A stretch of DNA of 64,000 nt from contig CAYUTO010000002.1 in NCBI GenBank assembly GCA_964447765.1, positions 148,316 to 212,315 of the forward strand. The letters are read 5' to 3'. Position 1 is the stretch's first letter. Each line of letters opens with the position of its first letter. The notes beneath the pieces are model-generated. The model worked only from the letters and a program-made list of their open reading frames with translations, was not told where the DNA came from and searched no databases. Made by a program: the position numbers and the translations under genes. Of this stretch, positions 1 to 9,578 are shown one piece after another. The stretch comes from an uncultured Gammaproteobacteria bacterium. GTDB lineage: Bacteria > Patescibacteriota > Patescibacteriia > Magasanikbacterales > UBA922.

Positions 1-124
1 ACGGCGTGGTCGCACGACGCGGCCCCCAATACTGGAGAATGGGCGATGTTTCGAAAGAAATATCGCCCCTCGCACAACGCATATCAGTCTCTGGTATACG
101 ATGACGAGAAAAGCAGTAGATACC

Positions 125-153
125 TTGACAAACGAGCTTATATATGCTATAAT
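125..153 (+). promoter_or_regulatory. sigma70-like promoter: TTGACA (125-130), 17-nt spacer, TATAAT (148-153). It would drive the long-leader transcript of lipoprotein gene 445-1782.
   Basis: Exact consensus hexamers with a 17-bp spacer were read directly. They lie in an AT-rich segment upstream of the first high-GC ORF. Confidence 0.6.
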
Positions 154-444
154 AAGCTGTTATAAAATAAAGAAGTGCCAGGGGAGTAGGTATAGGTACC
201 TAAGTCCACGGTAGGCCATCATAGATACTATGGTGACCCATACGAACCTTACAATTTACGCGAAAATGCAAATAGGGTAAAGAACAGGTCTAAGCTATCC
301 GTGGCGTGAAGAAAGAAGTCTTATACAAGAATTTTTTCTTAGCGTCACGAGGTAGTTCAAGGCGTGAACTCCTCGTGTAGTACGAGAGAGTATAGTTCTA
401 AAACCCCCAAAGACCGGCATCAAAAACCGGCAAAGGCAAACGTC

Positions 445-1782
445 ATGAAGAAGATCAATGTCATGCTCGACCGCATCTGCGGTGTCATCATGCTCCCGGC
501 CCTCATCGTCATCCTGTTCACGCTCACGACCGCCTACGGCGGCTGCGCGGACCACGGCGGCGCCGAAACGGTCATCCAGAAGGGAGACAAGGGCGAGCAG
601 GGTGAACCTGGTACGCCCGGCACGAACGGCACCGATGGTGTCGATGGTGAGAAGGGCGACCCCGGCGAGCCGGGACCGCAAGGTCCGCAGGGCGAAGACG
701 GCGAGGACGCGGTCCTCCCGTTCGAGGTGTGCGCCTCGGTGGCCGACTGTGTCGGTACCGAGAAGTGCACGAGTCAGGGGCTCTGCATCGAGCCCGGAGC
801 CACCGGACCGCAAGGTCCGCAGGGTAATTCGGGCGAAGATGGCGAAGATGGCGAGGACGGCGAAGACGCGGTCCTCCCGTTCGAGCGCTGCTCAAGCGAC
901 AACGACTGCGACCAGAACGAGGACTGCAATTCGCAGGGCCTCTGCCTGCCGCAGGCGACCACCGAGTGCTCGGTTGGCCAGGTGCAAACCTCGGCTTGCG
1001 GAGTGAACAATCGTGGTTCGCAGACGCGAGTTTGCGGAAGCAATGGCAGCTGGGGCTCGTGGAGTGCGTGCAACAGCACGGACGTGTGTGTCGATGGACA
1101 GATTCGTTCCGTCGAGTGCGCCTCGGGTCACGTGGGCAACTACCCCGAAGAGCGATGTGTCAATGGTCACTGGCAGATGTACGGCGCGTGCAACAACGAC
1201 GCGCAGTGCACGGTCGGCGAGACTGAATACACCGACTGCGGCCTCAACAACAATGGAAACCGAGTGCGTACTTGCACGAGCGACCGTAGCTGGAGCTCGT
1301 GGGGCGCGTGCAACGATCCGGACGTCTGCGTCGATGGCGCGGTCGAAACTCAGTCCTGCGGCACCAACAACGCCGGTACGCGTCAGCGCACCTGTGGTGG
1401 TGGTCAGTGGGGTAGCTGGGGAACGACTTGCGTTATGCCGCAGGGTGAGCTCGTGACCATCACGGTCACCTCACCTCAGGCAGCTGAGGCGCACGTCTAC
1501 TACGGCGATGGGTTCGACGACTTCGGGAACACGACCTTCACGGTCTCGGTTCCGAAGTCGGAAGCCTGTAGCTGGGGAGTCGAGGTTGACCTTCGCGTCG
1601 CGAAGTCGACCAAGGAAACGATGCCCTGGTACAACTGCACCGCACAGGACGCGAGCGTGCCGAGTTTCTCGGGCGTGAAGGTCTTCGTGAACGGTACAGA
1701 GATCGTCTGGACCATCGTCTCCCATCCGTGGGAGTGCGGGGGTAACCTGCAGGTCACCCGAGCGCAGCTCGGCTGTCTGTAA
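445..1782 (+). CDS. High-GC secreted lipoprotein (family member 1). It has a signal peptide with a lipobox-like ...TTAYGGC, then collagen-like G-X-Y tracts, four thrombospondin type-1-like Cys/Trp repeats, and the conserved C-terminal family domain.
   Basis: The ORF track gives 364-1782, but the ATG at 445 (MKKINVML...) is preceded by AAAGG and followed by a hydrophobic signal sequence. G-X-Y repeats read GEQGEPGTPGTNGTDGVDGEKGDPGEPGPQGPQGEDGED. Repeats have the form CG.NN.G.R.RTC....W.SW..CN..DVCVDG. The C-terminus ...ACSWGVEVDL...WYNC...VNG...LGCL is shared with the paralogs. GC-rich third codon positions contrast with the flanks. Confidence 0.8.
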   Translation: MKKINVMLDRICGVIMLPALIVILFTLTTAYGGCADHGGAETVIQKGDKGEQGEPGTPGTNGTDGVDGEKGDPGEPGPQGPQGEDGEDAVLPFEVCASVADCVGTEKCTSQGLCIEPGATGPQGPQGNSGEDGEDGEDGEDAVLPFERCSSDNDCDQNEDCNSQGLCLPQATTECSVGQVQTSACGVNNRGSQTRVCGSNGSWGSWSACNSTDVCVDGQIRSVECASGHVGNYPEERCVNGHWQMYGACNNDAQCTVGETEYTDCGLNNNGNRVRTCTSDRSWSSWGACNDPDVCVDGAVETQSCGTNNAGTRQRTCGGGQWGSWGTTCVMPQGELVTITVTSPQAAEAHVYYGDGFDDFGNTTFTVSVPKSEACSWGVEVDLRVAKSTKETMPWYNCTAQDASVPSFSGVKVFVNGTEIVWTIVSHPWECGGNLQVTRAQLGCL

Positions 1783-1802
1783 ACAACGCATTTCGCGTAA
1801 AG

Positions 1803-1898
1803 CTTTGAGTAAATAGCGACGTACTCAAAGTTCAATTCAACCAAGTCGCGGTAGGCAGGACTCGCTGGTGAAATACACTAGCTGGAGTCCTGCCTACC
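1803..1898 (+). other. Two strong GC-rich stem-loops directly after the gene-1 stop. One has a 9-bp stem (1803-1830) and one a perfect 14-bp stem (ggtaggcaggactc / gagtcctgcctacc, 1850-1898). Neither has a U-tract.
   Basis: The inverted repeats were read directly. They could be a 3' mRNA stabiliser or a Rho-dependent/processing site. Function is not established. Confidence 0.4.
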
Positions 1899-2049
1899 AC
1901 TCCAACATATCTTTATCAACATTCAGAACTCAGATTACAGTGAGCGACTAGTGAAAAATTGGTAAAGAGATGTGGGAATGAAAATTGCAAGTCCATCGAA
2001 AGATGGTTCGATGTTACCCTAACCGCGTGGACAGAAATGTTACGCGCGG

Positions 2050-2076
2050 AAAAAACCCGCGTATGCGGGTTTTTTG
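2050..2076. terminator. Rho-independent terminator, probably bidirectional: A-run, cccgc-gtat-gcggg, T-run.
   Basis: The sequence aaaaaacccgcgtatgcgggtttttt has a GC stem, a 4-nt loop, and flanking A and T runs. Confidence 0.6.
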
Positions 2077-2164
2077 AAAACTATCTCACACTCTTGCAAC
2101 ATGAATATGTGGTGTATCAAGAGTGGGAGAGAGAATTTTTTTTACAACACCCACGGAGAAGCTC

Positions 2165-3157
2165 ATGCCTACTTGGTTTCTTATTTTGATGGCACTGCTC
2201 CTCGGAGCATGCCAAGATGCAGTTGTCGGAGGAATCCGGCAGCTCGACGAAACCTCCAACCTCATGTTGTCAGAAGACAGTCGAGATACCTGGGTCGCGG
2301 AAGATGCCTACCCGGACACCATGATCGAGGATCCAACGATCGTGACTGATGCAACTCCCTACGACACCACTTCTGAAGTGGATACGAGGGACGTGGCAGA
2401 CACGGTCGCGGAAGTCGACGTGATCATTCCGGATTCAACTCCGGAGACGATCGAAGACATCGGACAAGAAGTCGTAGATACGACCGTGCCAGAAACCATC
2501 GGGGATACTGCGTCTGTACCTGATACGGTACTCGAGGTCGATACTGCTACGCCGGAGTGCGAAGATGACTTCGGTTGTGAAGATGACGACGACTGTACTC
2601 TCGACTCCTGCGAGAATTTCTCGTGCGTGCACGAGGAGAATACTTTGTGTGTCGCAGATACTGATGGTGATGGAATCGTTGATATCGATGACGTCTGTCC
2701 GCTGCAGCCCGAGTACTTCGATTACTTCGAAGACGACGATGGTTGTCCCGAGGCAGATCAAGATCATGATGGCTATACTCCTCTCGAAGGAGATTGCGGT
2801 GATGATCCGTCTCTCGGGAACGACCCGGCATCGTTCTGCTGGAACGAGTATGATGGCTACAATCTGCGCATACACTTCGGTGTAGGTGCAGACGAGCGGC
2901 CGTCGTGCGACTTCTACTACGACGATGGCGAGTTTGTCGAAGGAGTGTTCTTCTTCGAGACCAATGGTGCATTCCTGATCGGCCCGCACATCGCGGGGAG
3001 TGATACTCCGGGTGACGGAGTGGACCAAGATTGTGACGGGTCAGCAGACGATCCAGGAGAGTACGGACTCACGGAGCCCGACTGCATCTGGTGGCTCTTC
3101 GAAGACGACTCTAAAGAGGTCTCGTGTTGGTGGATGGAATTCGTCCCCACACCCTAG
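2165..3157 (+). CDS. High-GC, very acidic (D/E-rich) secreted lipoprotein (family member 2). It has a classic lipobox LLLGAC and a thrombospondin type-3 / calcium-binding-like DTDGDGIVDIDDVCP motif.
   Basis: The ORF track gives 2123-3157. The ATG at 2165 (MPTWFLILMALLLGAC) is preceded by GGAGA at -8. Composition and codon usage are high-GC. The C-terminal region only loosely resembles the shared family domain. Confidence 0.7.
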   Translation: MPTWFLILMALLLGACQDAVVGGIRQLDETSNLMLSEDSRDTWVAEDAYPDTMIEDPTIVTDATPYDTTSEVDTRDVADTVAEVDVIIPDSTPETIEDIGQEVVDTTVPETIGDTASVPDTVLEVDTATPECEDDFGCEDDDDCTLDSCENFSCVHEENTLCVADTDGDGIVDIDDVCPLQPEYFDYFEDDDGCPEADQDHDGYTPLEGDCGDDPSLGNDPASFCWNEYDGYNLRIHFGVGADERPSCDFYYDDGEFVEGVFFFETNGAFLIGPHIAGSDTPGDGVDQDCDGSADDPGEYGLTEPDCIWWLFEDDSKEVSCWWMEFVPTP

Positions 3158-3167
3158 ACCTGCAGCA

Positions 3168-3234
3168 CGCGGGGAGGAAAGCGCTATATACGGCTAGCCA
3201 TACGTGGCTTCCGATAGCGCCGACCTCTCCCGCG
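3168..3234 (+). other. Nested GC-rich stem-loop after the gene-2 stop. The outer arms are cgcggggagg / cctctcccgcg, the middle stem gcgctat/atagcgc, the inner stem agcca/tggct. There is no U-tract.
   Basis: The inverted repeats were read directly. Confidence 0.4.
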
Positions 3235-3251
3235 TACACTTACTCTATCGT

Positions 3252-3285
3252 TTGACAGTTCCTAGTTTTTATGCTAGGTTATAAT
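3252..3285 (+). promoter_or_regulatory. Promoter region for lipoprotein gene 3. It is homologous to the gene-4 promoter (TTGACA, 17 nt, TAGGTT, then an overlapping TATAAT).
   Basis: It aligns base-for-base with the gene-4 promoter around ...gctag[ga]tta...tgtattttgaa. The -10 is weaker than consensus. Confidence 0.4.
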
Positions 3286-3612
3286 GTATTTTGAACTTCG
3301 CATTTCGGCTGTCTGTACTATAAAAATAGTACAGGTGTACGGTATGCGGCACTTGAAAAATATTCGAGTGCTGGATCTTTGAAAAAATAGAAACGCACAG
3401 TCCAGATAGGAACTATTCGTCTGCCACAGTGGCAAGGACGTATGTACTATCGAGAGACTGTAAAGGAGGTATAGACAGCAAAGGTTTTGCTGTCTAGAAA
3501 TGTGGGTATCCTTAGAGTACAAGTCCGGATAAACAGTCGTCACAAGTCGTGGCGAGCATGTGAAATCTGGATGAACTGCCACACACCAAACACACGTGGC
3601 AAGGGGAATATC

Positions 3613-5442
3613 ATGAAGTTCAATACCAAGCCCATCATCCTGATGGGCTCCGCTCTGCTCGCACTCGCGAGTCTGAGCAGTGGGTGCGCTGATCACACGC
3701 CGGATGAGCTGGTCGTGGTCCAAGCGCCGGTCGTCGACATCGACAACGACGGAGTTCTCGACAATCTCGACAACTGCGACGATGTGCCGAACGAAGACCA
3801 AGCTGATACCGACAACAACGGTGTCGGTGATGCCTGTCAGGCAGACGACGACAGCGACGGTCACCTCGATGGTGCCGACAACTGCCCGCTCGTTTCGAAC
3901 AGTGACCAGCACAACCACGACGGCCCGGGCAACCTCAACTCGATCGTGACGACCGACACCATGGGTGACGCGTGCGATCCCGACGACGACAACGACGGGA
4001 TCTGCGATCAGGATGTGCCGGAAGGTACGGTTGGATGCGTCTACTACGACGATCATCCGGACAACTGCGAGGGTACGCCCAATCCGTTGCAGGAAGACCT
4101 CGACAACGACTACTTCGGCGACGCCTGCGACAACGACTGGGATGGTGACAACGTCCACAATGACGATGACACCTGCCCGTTCCTGCGCAACCAGGGTGAA
4201 GGACCGCAGAAGGACTCGGACAGCGACGGCGACGGCGACCTGTGCGACGATGATGACGATGGCGACGGTATCCCCGACGTCAGCGACAATTGTCCTCTGC
4301 ACTGCAACCCCGAGCAGGTCAACATGGACACCAGCGACGGTAACACCGATACCGAGGGAGATATCTTCGGCGACGAGTGCGACACCGATCCTGATGGCGA
4401 CGGCGTCATGAACTTCCACATGTGGCAGATGCCGCCGTGGTCGTGCGATGACGACGACAACTGCACGGTCGATCTCGACTGCGGTGACGACGACAACTGC
4501 ACCGACGACTGGTGCTACATGCCAGAAGATGGCAACGTCACCGCGAACTACTGGACCTGCCAGAACACCATCGACCTCGAGAACGAGGGTTGTATGGAGC
4601 CGCAGTGCTCCACCAACACCGACTGCCCGAGCGATGGTAACCCGTGCACCGACGAATGGTGCGACATGGGTGTCTGTGCGGTCTTGAACAACACGGCATC
4701 TTGTGCCGACTCCGACCTCTGCGATGGGGCCGAAGTCTGCGCCGGTGGTGTGTGTACGGACCAGGCGGATCTGGTCTGCAACGACAACAACTCCTGCACC
4801 GACGACACTTGTGTCCCGGCTACGGGTTGTTCCTACATGAGCGACGACACGAACGTGTGCGTCGACGCCAACCTCTGTAACGGCACTGAGACTTGCGTCT
4901 CGGGCGTCTGTACCGATCAGGCGGATCTGAGCTGCAACGACGAGGATGGCACTACGGCCGACTCGTGCGATCCCTCCACGGGATGCGTGCATACTCCGAT
5001 CGGAGGAGCGTGCACGGTCAATGCGAACTGCAACGACGGTGATCCGTTGACCTACGACACGTGCGTCTCGCTCGTCTGCCAGTATGCGCCGGGCATTCGC
5101 GTGCAGGTCTCGTCGACCGATGTGTCGGAGGCTTGGCAGGTCAACTTCTACTACAACGGCACGACGATCTCCGGCAACCTGCCCTTCGACGGCACCTTGC
5201 CGAAGACTCAGTCCTGTGACTGGGGTGTCGATCTCGCGGTCAATCGTCCCAGTACCAACCTGTACTGGGATTGCAACCCGGGGTTCCCCTCGAAGTCGAC
5301 CTTGACCGTCATGGTCAACGGCGTCACGAAGACGAACCAGTTCATGCAGCGCGCTTCGGCATGCGGCAATGCTGCACCGGGCAACCTGTACCTGTCGGAC
5401 GAGACGGGGGACAACGACCTCGGCTGCCCGGCCGCTCCTTAG
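3613..5442 (+). CDS. High-GC secreted lipoprotein (family member 3). It has a signal peptide with lipobox LSSGC, a long array of thrombospondin type-3-like calcium-binding repeats (D.D.DG..D..DNCP...N.DQ.D), Cys-rich CxDxNxC repeats, and the conserved C-terminal family domain.
   Basis: The ORF track gives 3487-5442. The ATG at 3613 (MKFNTKPIILMGSALLALASLSSGC) is preceded by AAGGGG. Repeats include DNDGVLDNLDNCDDVPNEDQADTDNNGVGDAC. The C-terminus reads ...SCDWGVDLAV...WDCNPG...VNG...NLYL...LGCP. Confidence 0.8.
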   Translation: MKFNTKPIILMGSALLALASLSSGCADHTPDELVVVQAPVVDIDNDGVLDNLDNCDDVPNEDQADTDNNGVGDACQADDDSDGHLDGADNCPLVSNSDQHNHDGPGNLNSIVTTDTMGDACDPDDDNDGICDQDVPEGTVGCVYYDDHPDNCEGTPNPLQEDLDNDYFGDACDNDWDGDNVHNDDDTCPFLRNQGEGPQKDSDSDGDGDLCDDDDDGDGIPDVSDNCPLHCNPEQVNMDTSDGNTDTEGDIFGDECDTDPDGDGVMNFHMWQMPPWSCDDDDNCTVDLDCGDDDNCTDDWCYMPEDGNVTANYWTCQNTIDLENEGCMEPQCSTNTDCPSDGNPCTDEWCDMGVCAVLNNTASCADSDLCDGAEVCAGGVCTDQADLVCNDNNSCTDDTCVPATGCSYMSDDTNVCVDANLCNGTETCVSGVCTDQADLSCNDEDGTTADSCDPSTGCVHTPIGGACTVNANCNDGDPLTYDTCVSLVCQYAPGIRVQVSSTDVSEAWQVNFYYNGTTISGNLPFDGTLPKTQSCDWGVDLAVNRPSTNLYWDCNPGFPSKSTLTVMVNGVTKTNQFMQRASACGNAAPGNLYLSDETGDNDLGCPAAP

Positions 5443-5443
5443 A

Positions 5444-5646
5444 ACCTCTCCTGCCTCGGCAGGAGACACCACGAAGCGATGTATGATTCGCTTCTGTAGG
5501 TGACGTTCGACGACGATCATACAACAACCCGGGGAAGTGCGCGTGCTACGGCACCCGCTTCCCCCTCTCTACTCTGAATTCAAGTACGATCTTGAAGATA
5601 GAGTAAAGAATAACAAAAAACTCCTGAGAATATTCAGGAGTTTTTT
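5444..5646 (+). repeat. Copy A of a ~200-bp conserved structured 3' element. It has five hairpins and ends in a terminator. The second copy is at 8229-8428.
   Basis: It is near-identical (a handful of substitutions) to 8229-8428. Hairpins include ctcctgcc-tc-ggcaggag and gaagcga-tgtatgat-tcgcttc. Further hairpins are the nested ggggaag...[gtgc-tacg-gcac]...cttcccc and ttcaag-tacgat-cttgaa. The last is ctcctga-loop-tcaggag followed by T6. Confidence 0.7.
5615..5646. terminator. Bidirectional Rho-independent terminator: A6, ctcctga-gaatat-tcaggag, T6. It forms the 3' end of repeat copy A.
   Basis: The stem-loop is flanked by A-run and T-run. Confidence 0.7.
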
Positions 5647-5671
5647 GTATGGTAAAGGTGGGTATTTTGTC

Positions 5672-5700
5672 TTGACTTATTTCTTTTTGTGTGCTAGATT
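5672..5700 (+). promoter_or_regulatory. sigma70-like promoter: TTGACT (5672-5677), 17 nt, TAGATT (5695-5700). It serves lipoprotein gene 4.
   Basis: Hexamers and spacing were read directly. It is homologous to the gene-3 promoter. Confidence 0.65.
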
Positions 5701-5934
5701 ATCCTGTATTTTGAAAATCCCTGTAGCGTGTGTATTTTTTGTGTGCTAAGTACGTATGCTATGTCGCTCGAAGTATATTCGAGCGATTAGATGTTCTTTA
5801 CAGAATAGTTAGTTATTTTCACAGTCAGAGGATGGGTGTACGTATAGAGAAATACGTGTGTATATCCACCCTCTGACTGCGGAAGTTCCACAAGTTAGAG
5901 TTCGTGAGGCTAGTGTTCAAAGGAAGTCTTTAGA

Positions 5935-8205
5935 ATGTACAGCAATCGCAACTCCATCGTCGCGCTCGTCGCGACGACCCTACTCATGGGGCTCATGAGC
6001 ATCTCGGCGTGCGAAAAGCACGACGACGGCAGTACCACCATCGTCAACAAGGAGGACCTCGGCCCGCAAACCGAGGCAGGTGCGCTCGATCTCGGGTTCT
6101 GCTCGATCAACTGGGACCAGACGCACACGTGCGTCGAGCTCGACTGTCCGGCATTCGGCGTCGAGTTCGAGCTCTGCAACGGTGCACCGGGACAGGGCTG
6201 TACGCTCGGTGCCAAGGTCGGTACCTGTGCTCCGCTCACGTGCGGCTCGCAGACCGTCCAGGTCTGCGACGGACCTCCGGGTCCGCAGGGCGAAGTCGGA
6301 CCACAAGGTCCGGCGGGTGATGCTGGTGCAACCGGTGAAGTCGGTCCGCAAGGGGAAACAGGTCCCCAGGGTCCGGCAGGCGACGCAGGTGCTACGGGTG
6401 AGGTGGGTCCAGAGGGGCCACAGGGTGACACGGGTCCGCAAGGTCCGTCGGGTCACAACAGCCTCATCCGTCAGTCGCCCGCGGGCGCGAACTGCCCCTA
6501 CGGAGGCACGCTCATCGAGAGCGGTGTCGACGATGGGTATCCGAGTGGAACGGCGGACAACGGTGTCCTTGAGGCAGACGAGGTCGATCACTTCTCCTAC
6601 GTCTGCAACGGTGCGCCAGGCCAGAATGGCTTGAGCTACTCGTGCTCGATCGGCGAGCTCATCGGTGAGTGCCGCACGTTCTCGTGCGGTCCGACGACTG
6701 CAGATCGGATTCAGCAAGTGAGGTTCCAAGTCTGCAACGGTGAGACGGGTCCACAAGGTTCTCAGGGGCAGCAGGGTCAGGCTGGTGAAGACGGTACGAG
6801 CTACTCGTGCTGGTTCGGTGGCTATGACGGTCAGTGCCGCACGTTCTCGTGCGGTCCGGACATCGACATGGATTCGATGGATCAGGTGATCGACAACTCG
6901 ATCGAGATCTGCGACGGCGAAGATGGACAGGACGGCGACAGCTGCTCCGTCTCCAAAGAAGATGGCTGCGCGACGATCTCGTGCGGTCCGGAAGGTGAGA
7001 TGTCGCTTTCGTGGGAATCAGAAACGATTTGCGACGGCGATTCGTGCTACTTCGGTAGCGAAGATGTCAAAGTCATGACCCTGGTCGGGGGCACCGAGTG
7101 TGTGTCGCTCTGCTGCGGCGTGGGTAATGGCGCGCATTGCGTCGACATCTGCGACGGCGAGAACTGTTCGGTCAGTCCCAAGGAGGACGGCTGTGCAGAG
7201 GTCTGCTGCAGTGGCGACTGCGTCGACATCTGCGACGGCGCGCCCGGCGGCTGTCTGAACGACGGCGAGTGTGCGAACGAAACCTTGTGCGACGGTGTCG
7301 AAGTGTGTGATCAGGGCATCTGCAGGCCGGGTACGCCCGTCACCTGCAACAACAACAATGTATGCGATGGTACTGAGACCTGCAATCCGGGAACCGGAAC
7401 CTGCAGCTCGGGCACCTCGCTCACATGCACTCCCGATGACAACCCGTGCACCGATACGGTGTGCGACGCGGTCCTCGGGTGCACGCACGTGAACGACAAT
7501 ACAAACACGTGCCTCGATGGCAACGTCTGCAACGGTGCAGAGGTATGTATCGCGGGTGTGTGTACAGACCAGGCGGATCTGGTCTGTGTCGACGCCGATC
7601 TCTGCGACGGTACCGAGACTTGCAACCCTTCGACGGGATGCAGCGCCTCGGGAACGCCGCTCAATTGCGACGACAACGACATGTGCACCACGGACAGCTG
7701 TGTCTCCGCAACGGGATGCGCTCACGCTCCGGTGGTGTGCGACGACATCGATCCGAACACGACGGACTCGTGCAATCCTTCAACGGGATGCGTGCACACT
7801 CCGATCGCTGGGCCAGAGATGCTCACGATCAAGGTGACCATTCCCGCGCGCGGAAGCCCCTCGGCAACGCCGGCGGGTGATGTGCGCTTCATCTGGGGTT
7901 CGACCTTCAACGACGGGGCACATCCGGCAAATGCCGGGAACGCCTACACGGTGACCCGGTCGATCGAGAAGTCGCAGGCCTGCCTCTGGGGCGTCGACAT
8001 CACGGTCGCCAATCCCGGCACCTCGCTCTTCTGGGACTGCCCCCTCAACGGCAATCCCGGTACGAAGTTCGATCCGAATCGTCTCCAGACGTGGGTCAAC
8101 AACGTCGAGAAGGTGGGTGTCCCGAAGCAGGACGGCAGCCAGTGCAGCGGCCAGGGTCCAGGTAATCTGTACCTCTCGCCCGCACAGCTCGGCTGTACGC
8201 CCTGA
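5935..8205 (+). CDS. High-GC secreted lipoprotein (family member 4). It has lipobox MSISAC, collagen-like G-X-Y tracts ([31 protein letters not shown]...), ICDG[EDA] Cys repeats, the same CxDxNxC Cys-rich repeats as gene 3, and the conserved C-terminal family domain.
   Basis: The ATG at 5935 is preceded by AAGGAAG at -8. The C-terminus reads ...[10 protein letters not shown]...WDCPLNG...VNN...NLYL...LGCTP. Several 20-40-nt stretches are near-identical to gene 3. Confidence 0.8.
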
Positions 8206-8228
8206 GCTAGCTCGGTAGTTCTTTCAGG

Positions 8229-8428
8229 ACCTCTCCTGCCCCGGCAGGAGACACCACGAAGCGATGTATGATTCGCTTCAGTAGGTGACGTTCGACGACG
8301 ATCATACAACAACCCGGGGAAGTGCGCGTGCTACGGCACCCGCTTCCCCCTCTCTACTCTGAATTCAAATACTTTTGAAGATAGAGTAAAGAATAACAAA
8401 AAACTCCTGATTATTTCAGGAGTTTTTT
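8229..8428 (+). repeat. Copy B of the ~200-bp structured 3' element. It starts 23 nt after the gene-4 stop.
   Basis: It is near-identical to 5444-5646. The terminator loop differs (ttattt versus gaatat) but the stem is preserved. Confidence 0.7.
8398..8428. terminator. Bidirectional Rho-independent terminator: A6, ctcctga-loop-tcaggag, T6. It forms the end of repeat copy B.
   Basis: The stem-loop is flanked by A and T runs. Confidence 0.7.
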
Positions 8429-8489
8429 GTTTTATGAAGATTAATACTGTTTCAAAATATTCTGTTTAGAACAAGCCTATGATATACTT

Positions 8490-9578
8490 ATGTGGAATTT
8501 TATGAAGAAAATACATGTCGTGCATATCATTCCCAAGCTTGGTTTCGGTGGAGCCGAGCGTTTTGTGGTTGAACTTGCGAAGCATGTGTCATCCAAAAAT
8601 ATTCGTCAGTCAATTATTACGCTGTGGGACGATCGTCCGTTGATGGGGGAATTACCTGATTCAGTTTCGTGTACCGTATTTCCTTTTGACCGTATCGGAT
8701 ATGCACATCGAATTCCGAAGCTCGCGACAGTACTTCGAGAAATGCAGGCTGATGTCGTACATACACATCTTTTTAGTGCAGATCTGTGGGGAAGGCTTGC
8801 AGCGAAGTCACTGGAGATTCCCGTAGTTACCACCGAACATAATATCAATGTGGGAGAATCGTGGCTCTGGGGAAGAATCAAGCGTGCAATGAAAAAATAT
8901 TCTCGCGTGTACACAGCGCCGTCAAGTGCTGTCCGAGAATATATGAATTCGACATATGGTATTGCAGTTGAAAATACTCGAGTGATTATGCATGGCATCG
9001 AATTAGAACATTTTATCAAAATAAAACCTGCAACTTTTGCTTCACCATACAAGCTACTCATGATGGGAAGAGTCGTAGAGCAAAAAGGGCATTCAATTGC
9101 GCTTGAGGCATTACAAAAAATTACAGACATTCCGTGTACACTTACGATGGTGGGCGATGGAGAAAAAAAAGAATCGCTCATGCGCTATGCGAAAGAATTG
9201 GGAGTGAGTGATCGAGTGATATGGAAACCAGCCATCGAGAATGTTGCTGCCGAATATGCGGCGGCAGACATCGTGCTTGTTCCTTCACGATGGGAAGGGT
9301 TGGGAATCGTCGTGCTTGAAGCGCTCGCAAGTGAAAGACTAGTGATCGCGTCTGAGGTCGGAGGAATTCCTGAAATTATTACTGATCGCGAAAACGGCCG
9401 ATTGATTCCTGTGGAAAATAGCGAGGCACTTGCAGGTGCAATTCGTGCAAGTGTGGAAAATCAATTAGCTACAAAAAAAATTGCAAAGCAAGGTCGTGCT
9501 TGGGTAAAAGAACGAGGAAGTGTAGTGCGTATGGCTGAAGCATATGAAGCCTTGTATCAAGAAGTAGTGAAAAAATAA
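8490..9578 (+). CDS. Glycosyltransferase family 4 (GT-B fold).
   Basis: N-terminus HVVHIIPKLGFGGAERFVVELAKH. C-terminal EGLGIVVLEALASERLVIASEVGGIPEII matches the GT4 E-x7-E nucleotide-sugar-binding motif. Confidence 0.75.
   Translation: MWNFMKKIHVVHIIPKLGFGGAERFVVELAKHVSSKNIRQSIITLWDDRPLMGELPDSVSCTVFPFDRIGYAHRIPKLATVLREMQADVVHTHLFSADLWGRLAAKSLEIPVVTTEHNINVGESWLWGRIKRAMKKYSRVYTAPSSAVREYMNSTYGIAVENTRVIMHGIELEHFIKIKPATFASPYKLLMMGRVVEQKGHSIALEALQKITDIPCTLTMVGDGEKKESLMRYAKELGVSDRVIWKPAIENVAAEYAAADIVLVPSRWEGLGIVVLEALASERLVIASEVGGIPEIITDRENGRLIPVENSEALAGAIRASVENQLATKKIAKQGRAWVKERGSVVRMAEAYEALYQEVVKK

Follow-up and report, generated by a model that had tools for sequence, protein, structure and literature searches.

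Genes 3 and 4 of a tandem array of bacterial surface lipoproteins share short stretches of nearly identical DNA within otherwise diverged Cys-rich regions, raising the question of whether the two genes still exchange DNA or whether the stretches merely record conserved protein motifs. The array lies in a 64,000-nt piece of contig CAYUTO010000002.1 (GCA_964447765.1), hereafter the window, from an uncultured member of Candidatus Magasanikbacteria (CPR) with a genome of 40% GC. It comprises at least four surface-lipoprotein genes (genes 1-4; Table 1), with about 2.8 kb separating genes 3 and 4, which share a strand. All four are complete, with a start codon, a signal peptide and lipobox, and a stop codon; each lipobox carries its Cys (AYGG-C, LLGA-C, LSSG-C and SISA-C for genes 1-4), as called by eye from the translations.

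Table 1 Features of the lipoprotein array (positions in the window).
Feature	Position	Strand	Description and basis
Gene 1	445..1782	+	ORF and translation; lipoprotein, signal peptide ends AYGGC
Gene 2	2165..3157	+	ORF and translation; acidic lipoprotein, LLGAC lipobox
Gene 3 promoter-like site	3252-3280		Homologous to gene 4 site; TTGACA-17 nt-TAGGTT
Gene 3	3613..5442	+	Lipoprotein (LSSGC); Pfam and independent Logan contig copy
Patch 1, gene 3 copy	4747..4778	+	31/32 identical to 7555-7586
Patch 2, gene 3 copy	4960..5002	+	39/43 against 7765-7807; end of the last CTDC module
Third example, GNLYLS motif	5380..5397	+	15/18 identical to 8161-8178
3' element, gene 3 copy	5441..5652	+	Repeat family D5; alignment to 8226-8439
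Gene 4 promoter-like site	5672..5700	+	TTGACT-17 nt-TAGATT, TG ahead; scan
Gene 4	5935..8205	+	Lipoprotein (SISAC); Pfam and L007 ortholog
Patch 1, gene 4 copy	7555..7586	+	Within tract 7510-7587, sharply unlike the L007 ortholog
Patch 2, gene 4 copy	7765..7807	+	Within second ortholog-divergent tract 7738-7812
3' element, gene 4 copy	8226..8434	+	Begins 20 nt past the stop codon

The proteins are modular. Gene 1 combines collagen-like repeats (Pfam Collagen, 47.9 bits), Cys/Trp repeats and the C-terminal domain of the family, which can be aligned with those of genes 3 and 4. Gene 3 carries thrombospondin type 3 (TSP3) repeats (Pfam TSP_3, PF02412, 93.3 bits in five stretches; gathering threshold 25 bits), Cys-rich Dicty_CTDC/EGF-like modules (PF00526, 34.4 bits; gathering threshold 27 bits) and the C-terminal domain. 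In gene 4, collagen-like repeats (Pfam Collagen, 43.5 bits) are followed by Cys-rich modules, Dicty_CTDC modules (40.7 bits, above the gathering threshold of 27) and the same C-terminal domain, while gene 2 gave only a weak TSP3 match of 18.9 bits, below the Pfam threshold of 25. GC3 is 0.78, 0.59, 0.80 and 0.74 for genes 1-4, respectively. A promoter scan returned promoter-like sites ahead of genes 1 and 4, the latter kept in the related contigs L001 and L008; the site ahead of gene 3 falls below the scan threshold and was read by eye, and 30 nt overlapping it (3266-3295) match 5686-5715 at 83%. One terminator hairpin lies 3' of gene 3 and another 3' of gene 4, and no tRNA or integration site was found.

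The C-terminal domain, of about 115 aa, occurs in only few database proteins, and the best database matches are lipoproteins from Myxococcota/'Deltaproteobacteria' MAGs at 30-49% identity. When the C-terminal halves of the gene 3 and gene 4 products served as protein queries, no homolog exceeded 49% identity, most matches coming from Myxococcota; no close homologs were found outside the fetched relatives, an exact look-up of gene 4 returned no record, and a locus search with a profile of the C-terminal domain yielded none in metagenomes and one distant locus in genomes. Since protein searches gave distant homologs only, relatives were found via neighbouring genes. This recovered orthologs of gene 2 in L001 and L011 and the C-terminal 493 aa of a gene 4 ortholog in L007 (GCA_018061425.1); an identical copy of gene 3 is present on an independent Logan contig. 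Gene calling often puts the GC-rich genes of the array on the wrong strand, and their repeats interrupt assemblies; together, these two problems explain why the family is nearly invisible in protein databases.

Pairwise BLASTN and a codon alignment were used to compare genes 3 and 4. The best colinear match (4632-5002 against 7434-7807) reaches 63% identity, and the codon alignment (4630 through the stop codon) 55% at the nucleotide and 47% at the amino acid level; against this background both patches stand out, where the original prediction had placed them. The accompanying claim of one or two differences per patch holds for patch 1 (31/32 identical), but patch 2 has four (39/43). Patch 1 encodes the same 11 residues in both genes, with two differences over the 33 nt of its 11 codons, and patch 2 encodes 14 residues beginning DSC(D/N). 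Where the two proteins have identical residues, the same codon is used at 19/24 positions inside the patches and at 39/87 (0.45) outside them; as codon usage alone would give 0.48-0.50, synonymous sites are saturated outside the patches. In the C-terminal domain (5179-5439), moreover, all 81 of the 81 informative sites in a comparison of four sequences follow the gene tree. Both observations identify genes 3 and 4 as old paralogs, whose C-terminal domains show no exchange. A third stretch of similarity that had been offered as an example falls here, and represents the conserved GNLYLS motif of this domain and not an exchange patch.

Could the two remaining patches be nothing more than conserved protein motifs, namely the CTDC consensus and the lineage-specific GVCTDQADL, written in biased codons? 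Each patch corresponds exactly to a run of identical residues, the DSC.P.TGC.HTP sequence of patch 2 is a Dicty_CTDC family motif that recurs in distant homologs, and GVCTDQADL occurs a third time, within gene 3 (4903-4935), which shows that this motif is maintained in the protein. A scan of same and different codons along genes 3 and 4 of the window was likewise not significant (two best segments summed, P = 0.17). The three modules in the window (starting at 4679, 4835 and 7487) offered too few informative sites to favour either reading. We consider this reading of conserved motifs unlikely, and several results speak against it. When each codon was redrawn from the usage of its own gene with both proteins held fixed, the two best DNA segments were equalled in 0.0-0.5% of simulations when mismatches scored -2 or -3 and in 2-5% when they scored -1, so that overall two such patches would arise from protein conservation and codon bias with P about 0.002-0.05. 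The C.GAEVC residues just 5' of patch 1 are also conserved, yet use the same codon at only 1/6 positions. In favour of recombination, a mosaic test delimited tracts at 7557-7579 (P = 0.0008) and 7776-7794 (P = 0.0046), although it is partly circular, the patches having been found by identity between genes 3 and 4.

The decisive comparison is with the gene 4 ortholog of the sister genome L007, the closest relative, whose contig begins inside gene 4. Conserved motifs leave unexplained that synonymous divergence between the gene 4 orthologs peaks, near saturation, exactly in the patches: at identical residues, 12/23 positions keep the same codon within the patches, compared with 183/213 beyond them (Fisher P = 0.0003), a test independent of how the patches were picked. 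Nucleotide differences show the same pattern (13/75 in the patches, 59/714 elsewhere; P = 0.013), and local identity between the paralogs averages 0.64 at sites variable between orthologs and 0.56 at invariant ones (circular-shift P about 0.04). Differences between orthologs are thus concentrated where the paralogs are most alike, the opposite of what conservation by selection would produce. In patch 1, gene 4 differs from gene 3 at 2/33 positions and from its own ortholog at 7/33, mostly synonymously. Over the 45 nt of patch 2, gene 4 differs from gene 3 at 6 positions and from its L007 ortholog at 9, gene 3 differs from its L009 ortholog at 11, and L007 gene 4 differs from L009 gene 3 at 16; of these four, L007 gene 4 is the outlier, and gene 4 of the window clusters with gene 3 from both the window and L009. 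Window gene 3 and L007 gene 4 use the same codon at about 12/22 patch positions (hand count). Taken together, the ortholog and paralog codon counts indicate that the patch DNA is under no special constraint and that the two paralogs within the genome are the closest pair, as expected for the intragenomic recombination first proposed. The sites involved are few, 75 nt in two patches with about 13 ortholog differences. Among the other relatives, the contigs of L005, L006 and L010 stop at the edge of the island and that of L011 ends ahead of the tracts.

A stronger signal than that of the patches, absent from the earlier note, lies downstream of the coding sequences. Genes 3 and 4 are each followed by an element of about 210 nt with five hairpins, and the two copies form direct repeats around gene 4 and its promoter. 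The gene 3 copy begins at the stop codon and consists of four hairpins plus the terminator hairpin; it is predicted to fold at -97.9 kcal/mol (z = -10.6), and the gene 4 copy has the same z-score (z = -10.6). The structure is conserved in the relatives, with compensatory changes. A 160-nt core is 97.5% identical between the two window copies, 93-95.5% identical to the element behind L008 gene 3 and 87% identical to that behind L007 gene 4 (87-95% between genomes overall). A complex variant of hairpin 3, comprising two compensatory substitutions and a 3-nt indel, is found in both window copies and behind L008 gene 3, while another variant is common to L007 gene 4 and L009 gene 3, an imperfect fit to the host-gene species tree ((window, L007), L009). 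The junction with the stop codon comes in a short form (window gene 3, L007 gene 4, L009 gene 3) and a form about 21 nt longer (window gene 4, L008 gene 3); both occur after both types of gene, and hence neither is bound to one gene. These sequence comparisons show that the element has undergone concerted evolution, grouping by genome rather than by gene. Structural selection is responsible for part of its conservation, but not for this grouping.

For the 3' element alone, a mobile or dispersed repeat of REP/BIME or MITE type might have landed independently after both genes, and its compact series of hairpins, a 5' boundary set sharply at the stop codon or close to it and the CTCCTG...CAGGAG hairpins at both ends are all in keeping with such an origin. 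We find this doubtful, however: an HMM search of 172 kb of the window and relatives, a small fraction of each genome, detected copies only downstream of genes of the gene 3 or gene 4 type, the element occupies the same place in four genomes, and the variants of the stop-codon junction move with it between genes. An exact 22-mer of the element was absent from genome and metagenome contig collections, and Rfam 15 gave only sub-threshold chance matches over window positions 1-9000, leaving the element without a family.

Alternatively, the uneven divergence of the gene 4 orthologs may stem from allelic recombination with other strains, its overlap with the patches being coincidental. Patchy divergence is typical of recombining populations; the neighbouring housekeeping genes also diverge unevenly (2-27% per 60 nt), and the 3'-element variants fit the host-gene tree imperfectly. 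Against this, the overlap with the predefined patches is significant at the level of both codons (P = 0.0003) and nucleotides (P = 0.013), and patch 2 of window gene 4 has codons of the gene 3 type, which makes coincidence quite improbable. That the patches are fixed by a DNA or RNA function of their own, such as a GACCAG-GCGGAT-CTGGTC hairpin or a binding site, is barely credible despite the perfect inverted repeats of 6 bp in patch 1 and 5 bp in patch 2, as the patches are among the least conserved positions of the gene 4 orthologs (7/33 and 7/43 differences) and CAG-to-ATG and CTG-to-TTG changes in L007 disrupt the repeat of patch 1.

Other candidates were also considered and rejected. A Pfam scan for a diversity-generating retroelement (DGR), covering the island genes and 30 larger downstream ORFs beyond the first few after the island, revealed no reverse transcriptase, and the differences between repeats are not adenine-specific. 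An integron attC site was dismissed by reasoning only, from the genes' own promoter-like sites and long leaders, the five separate hairpins and the lack of an integrase. As a means of maintaining the high GC content, biased conversion is disfavoured by 16 GC-to-AT against 5 AT-to-GC changes, small numbers polarised in the C-terminus of gene 3.

Short-tract gene conversion between genes 3 and 4 is thus supported by comparison of these sequences: within the genome the paralogs are more alike than the orthologs, both in the patches and in the 3' element, and the tracts are bounded by flanks that keep the old gene tree. Overall, the locus is probably best explained by old paralogs that still exchange DNA by gene conversion, in the patches and in the 3' element, with tracts that are young relative to the rest of both genes. 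The mosaicism anticipated between the paralogs takes the form of two bounded tracts of 30-45 nt, and does not extend to whole cassettes. Mechanistically, genes 3 and 4 would exchange DNA through non-reciprocal homologous recombination, presumably by a RecA-type pathway and with a tentative direction for each event. One substrate would be the 30-45-nt stretches in the Cys-rich modules, where conserved motifs could supply local homology, and a second the structured 3' untranslated element of about 210 nt, near-identical within the genome. With a direct repeat of the 3' element on either side, gene 4 could in addition be deleted or duplicated when the two copies recombine.

The gene content of the island does vary among relatives with about 90% identity in the neighbouring genes. 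L009 is without gene 4, its gene 3 and 3' element directly adjoining a glycosyltransferase gene, and has a mosaic gene whose flanks match the ones around gene 1; the gene 3 orthologs of L009 and L011 contain other Cys-rich modules, without GVCTDQADL. Within the population, Logan contigs from SRR12712864 and SRR12712865, both consensus assemblies, are 100% identical to the window, so that same-strain assemblies from two samples give no apparent sign of ongoing variation.

Programmed cassette or antigenic variation is not shown by these data. The proposed exchange of cassettes is at odds with tracts of only 30-45 nt and with two complete genes that each have their own promoter-like site and terminator, and nothing among genes 1-4 resembles a silent donor copy. 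A link to antigenic or adhesive variation may nevertheless exist: in the long term, conversion would yield mosaic, fast-changing surface proteins, possibly with a benefit in adhesion or evasion. A bolder proposal is that, in an episymbiotic CPR bacterium, the array serves specifically to diversify lipoproteins for host attachment. The structured 3' element and the motif-coded patches would be selected as recombination anchors, in the role that conserved repeats have in pilin or vls systems, modules and whole genes would be swapped, deleted and rebuilt far faster than other parts of the genome, and the foreign-looking GC3 of 0.74-0.80 would be a by-product of GC-biased gene conversion; we regard this as improbable.

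Attachment to host cells is the presumed lifestyle of many CPR bacteria. That conversion reshuffles bacterial surface proteins is already known; here it concerns a little-studied CPR lineage, and our literature search on surface variation or surface-protein conversion in CPR, and on the run and project accessions, found nothing relevant. The locus offers a concrete CPR case: an array of lipoproteins built like extracellular-matrix proteins (collagen, TSP3 and Cys-rich modules) and foreign in base composition, whose members combine short-tract exchange, a co-evolving structured 3' tail and a gene content that differs among relatives.

Parts of the array have counterparts elsewhere. Myxococcota lipoproteins with Dicty_CTDC ('slime mold repeat', PF00526) and TSP3 contain the same types of repeat, with CTDC alternating with EGF-like C.D.N.C.G.E.C modules, whereas the host here is a Magasanikbacteria of 40% GC and the proteins have their own C-terminal domain of about 115 aa. 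Enterobacterial REP/BIME sequences are clusters of stem-loops in the 3' UTR that stabilise mRNA. Like them, the 3' element is a series of stable hairpins right after the stop codon that ends in a terminator; unlike them, it is bound to one gene family, with two uniform copies and none dispersed (172 kb).

Gene conversion underlies antigenic variation at Borrelia vlsE/vls, Neisseria pilE/pilS, Treponema tprK and Mycoplasma genitalium mgpB/MgPar. The vls, pilS, tprK and MgPar systems are alike in copying short segments into a surface (lipo)protein gene, and the 3' repeat that forms a conserved border at pilin loci resembles the shared 3' element of genes 3 and 4. In contrast to the vls/pilS type, the array has no promoterless silent cassettes, single expression site or variation in the sampled population, and the few events seen are spread over about 8% host-gene divergence, which corresponds to exchange on an evolutionary scale and not to a demonstrated switching system. 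An unusual base composition is a further feature common to the array and to vls. The vlsE gene is treated in PMC9159922.

A parallel in gene organisation is provided by babA/babB and sabA/sabB of Helicobacter pylori, which are likewise complete, separately transcribed surface-protein paralogs between which segments are copied non-reciprocally, with shared end sequences as homology. In H. pylori, the products are outer-membrane proteins and the coding ends are identical over long stretches, whereas the array encodes CPR lipoproteins, its long shared sequence is a non-coding 3' element and its coding tracts span only 30-45 nt. Exchange in H. pylori was shown experimentally, while at the present locus it is inferred by comparison alone.

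Four genes on one strand (genes 1-4, here the island) lie in the initial 8.4 kb of the window; each encodes an N-terminal signal peptide that ends at a lipobox cysteine. The remainder of the window forms a large cell-surface glycosylation cluster. Close relatives of the neighbouring genes carry the name Candidatus Magasanikbacteria, a candidate phyla radiation (CPR) lineage. A C-terminal domain of ~115 aa is common to genes 1, 3 and 4; it has no family assignment, and its predicted model, of modest confidence (pLDDT 68), had no significant structural match. Judged from the Pfam matches (for Dicty_CTDC, the 'slime mold' repeat, the threshold is 27 bits), the domain set suggests calcium-binding, disulfide-rich adhesins. 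Gene 1 also encodes four ~45-aa repeats (970-1430; pattern C..G....T..CG.NN.G...R.C...G.W..W..C) that resemble thrombospondin type 1 repeats and have no Pfam match. Genes 3 and 4 have apparent leaders of ~230-330 nt, running from a conserved extended -10 promoter (TGCTAGRTT) to the start codon; these contain hairpins, are 76-89% conserved in relatives and may be regulatory.

Island genes, shared stretches and 3' elements (window coordinates unless a contig is named)
Feature	Position	Description
Gene 1	445-1782	Lipobox signal peptide; Pfam collagen repeats
Gene 2	2165-3157	Signal peptide with lipobox cysteine
Gene 3	3613-5442	Lipobox signal peptide; thrombospondin type 3 repeats 93 bits, Dicty_CTDC 34 bits (Pfam)
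Gene 4	5935-8205	Lipobox signal peptide; collagen repeats, Dicty_CTDC 41 bits (Pfam)
Patch 1	4747-4778 (gene 3), 7555-7586 (gene 4)	31/32 identical
Patch 2	4960-5002 (gene 3), 7765-7807 (gene 4)	39/43 identical
Third example (GNLYLS motif)	5380-5397, 8161-8178	15/18 identical
3' element, gene 3 copy	5441-5652	Begins at gene 3 stop codon
3' element, gene 4 copy	8226-8434	Begins 20 nt past gene 4 stop codon
Leader regions	3158-3612, 5653-5934; L001 9802-10233; L008 491-755	

The original prediction held that short stretches of near-identical DNA, set in otherwise diverged repeat regions of genes 3 and 4, reflect intragenomic recombination. Patches 1 and 2 are present as described, and the surrounding sequence is indeed diverged: the best colinear match in pairwise BLASTN reached 63%, and a codon alignment from 4630 to the stop gave 55% DNA and 47% protein identity. 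Outside the patches, identical residues use the same codon in 39 of 87 cases, which matches the codon-usage expectation of 0.48-0.50 and therefore indicates saturated synonymous sites; inside them the count is 19 of 24. Each patch corresponds exactly to a run of identical amino acids, and one of the two runs is the CTDC family motif. When both proteins were held fixed and every codon was redrawn from its own gene's usage, simulated pairs as good as those observed arose in at most 0.5% of runs with mismatch penalties of -2/-3 and in 2-5% with a penalty of -1; a scan restricted to whether identical residues share a codon gave no significant result (P=0.17). From the window alone, the patch signal is suggestive, not conclusive. 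The patch 1 motif also recurs within gene 3, at 4903-4935, and the core CAGGCGGATCTG common to all three copies would point to exchange or duplication between modules within one gene as well.

Direct searches for close homologues of genes 3 and 4 yielded none, and relatives were found via the neighbouring genes. L007 (GCA_018061425.1) supplies the last 493 codons of a gene 4 orthologue and the downstream region; L008 (a JGI contig of 919 nt) the end of gene 3, the downstream region and the start of gene 4; L009 (GCA_964435035.1) the whole island; and L001 and L011 genes 1 and 2 with the beginning of gene 3. Divergence in the neighbouring glycosylation genes (window-L007 8.5%, window-L009 11.3%, L007-L009 11.1%) gives the species tree ((window, L007), L009).

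Constraint at the DNA level would predict that gene 4 orthologues are alike in the patches, and they are not. Window and L007 gene 4 differ at 9.1% of 789 aligned nt, and the rate is higher in the patches (13/75) than in the rest of the alignment (59/714; P=0.013); identical residues share a codon in only 12/23 cases in the patches against 183/213 outside (P=0.0003), and the changes between the orthologues are mostly synonymous. Patch 1 has 7/33 differences between the orthologues and 2/33 between the window's two paralogues; for patch 2 the counts are 9/45 and 6/45. Overall, orthologue differences fall at the sites of highest paralogue identity (circular-shift P ~0.04), a pattern opposite to the one expected under selective conservation. 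In a 3SEQ-style walk, window gene 4 was modelled as a mosaic that joins an L007-like backbone to pieces of window gene 3; one tract fell at 7557-7579 (P=0.0008) and the other at 7776-7794 (P=0.0046). These values are partly affected by patch selection and were weighted less.

Across four sequences of patch 2, window gene 4 groups with gene 3 of the window and of L009, with L007 gene 4 as the outlier; at few sites, this suggests that gene 3 sequence was copied into gene 4 in the lineage of the window. The patch 1 motif GVCTD(Q/M)ADL occurs in both gene 4 orthologues and is missing from the L009 and L011 gene 3 orthologues, hinting, again at few sites, at the opposite direction. The third example, also proposed as an exchange tract, is a mere conserved motif: it lies in the C-terminal domain (5179-5439), which shows no exchange, as 81/81 informative sites across four sequences separate gene 3 from gene 4. 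Paralogues closer than orthologues in the patches, within genes whose C-terminal domain keeps the gene tree, support the predicted intragenomic recombination.

A stronger signal, overlooked by the original prediction, lies in the ~210-nt 3' element that follows both genes. Its two window copies are 94% identical over 214 nt (97.5% over the 160-nt core) and, when folded, form four hairpins and a terminator hairpin, at -97.9 and -93.3 kcal/mol (z ~-10.6); an Rfam search returned no family match. The element also lies behind L007 gene 4, L008 gene 3 and L009 gene 3, with compensatory changes in hairpins 3 and 4 and a terminator stem swapped outright in two genomes, and on these grounds we take it to be a functional structure. 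A dispersed repeat is disfavoured by an HMM scan that found no further copies in 172 kb of window and relatives, a small sample.

By sequence, the copies of the element cluster according to genome and not according to the gene they follow. Over the core, the window copies match the L008 gene 3 copy at 93-95.5% identity, and each of these three matches the L007 gene 4 copy at 87%. One complex variant of hairpin 3, which combines two paired substitutions with a 3-nt indel, is present in the two window copies and in L008 gene 3; L007 gene 4 and L009 gene 3 have the alternative variant in common. At the stop-codon junction, window gene 4 and L008 gene 3 have a long form, and a short form occurs in window gene 3 and, among the relatives, in L007 gene 4 and L009 gene 3, so that both forms are spread over both genes. 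Orthologous non-coding DNA of the island diverges normally (for example, 76% identity to L001 in the gene 2-gene 3 spacer). Every possible history requires at least one transfer between the gene 3 and gene 4 loci.

Taken together, sequence comparison demonstrates both the exchange between the two loci and its young age. The data are best read as short-tract, non-reciprocal homologous recombination between two tandem paralogues, with the long shared 3' element and motif-coded homology in the Cys-rich modules as its seeds; we infer the pathway, as we do the direction of each event and any selective value.

Gene content also varies among relatives. L009 lacks gene 4, and its gene 3 and 3' element adjoin a glycosyltransferase gene, the expected remnant of a deletion between two direct repeats. 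Its neighbouring genes are ~89% identical to the window's, yet its island (L009 1-8900) differs, with one small family member of 245 aa and a mosaic gene of 588 aa. The mosaic gene starts like gene 1, has middle modules like those of gene 4 as well as CTDC modules, and ends in a different C-terminus; the flanks on either side of it match those of gene 1. Independent assemblies break in the island or at its border, and several of these breaks fall in the repeated 3' element or in the thrombospondin type 3 repeats: L003 stops 45 nt into the element (window 5486), L006 begins at window 8381, the L005, L006 and L010 contigs begin at the island border, and the L007 start and L001 end are also breaks. 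These breaks fit real repeats confusing assemblers.

GC3 is 0.74-0.80 in genes 1, 3 and 4, 0.59 in gene 2 and 0.30-0.38 in 14 neighbouring genes (8490-64000); the island's intergenic spacers are host-like (0.42-0.46 GC). Only coding DNA has the foreign composition, which must be old, since the same high GC is present in L001 and L009. Polarised changes in the gene 3 C-terminus (16 GC-to-AT, 5 AT-to-GC; small numbers) fit slow decay of this composition better than they fit its active upkeep. Very long antisense ORFs run opposite the GC-rich genes (3274-5520 and 5980-6756, minus strand). Public calls for three L009 island genes are on the wrong strand (ORFs 150-1565, 3096-4964 and 6457-8619, minus strand) and an exact look-up found no protein record of window gene 4, from which it follows that the lipoprotein family is mostly absent from protein databases. 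L001 (CAZMEW010000013.1), labelled 'uncultured Gammaproteobacteria', is syntenic with the Magasanikbacteria island from gene 1 through gene 2 to the beginning of gene 3 (72-75% DNA identity); its label or binning is probably wrong.

Genes 3 and 4 show the marks of concerted evolution in the exchanged tracts, and not those of a cassette-type antigenic variation system. There is no indication of programmed switching: the island has no silent cassettes, the ORFs scanned include no recombinase or reverse transcriptase, and assemblies of the same strain show no differences. The process is already known, and this is a new example in an unusual host, noteworthy for the co-evolving 3' element and the compositionally foreign, fast-changing island. 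The closest analogue is provided by the Helicobacter bab and sab genes, expressed adhesin paralogues that undergo intragenomic conversion; the segmental conversion systems vls, pil and tprK are looser analogues.
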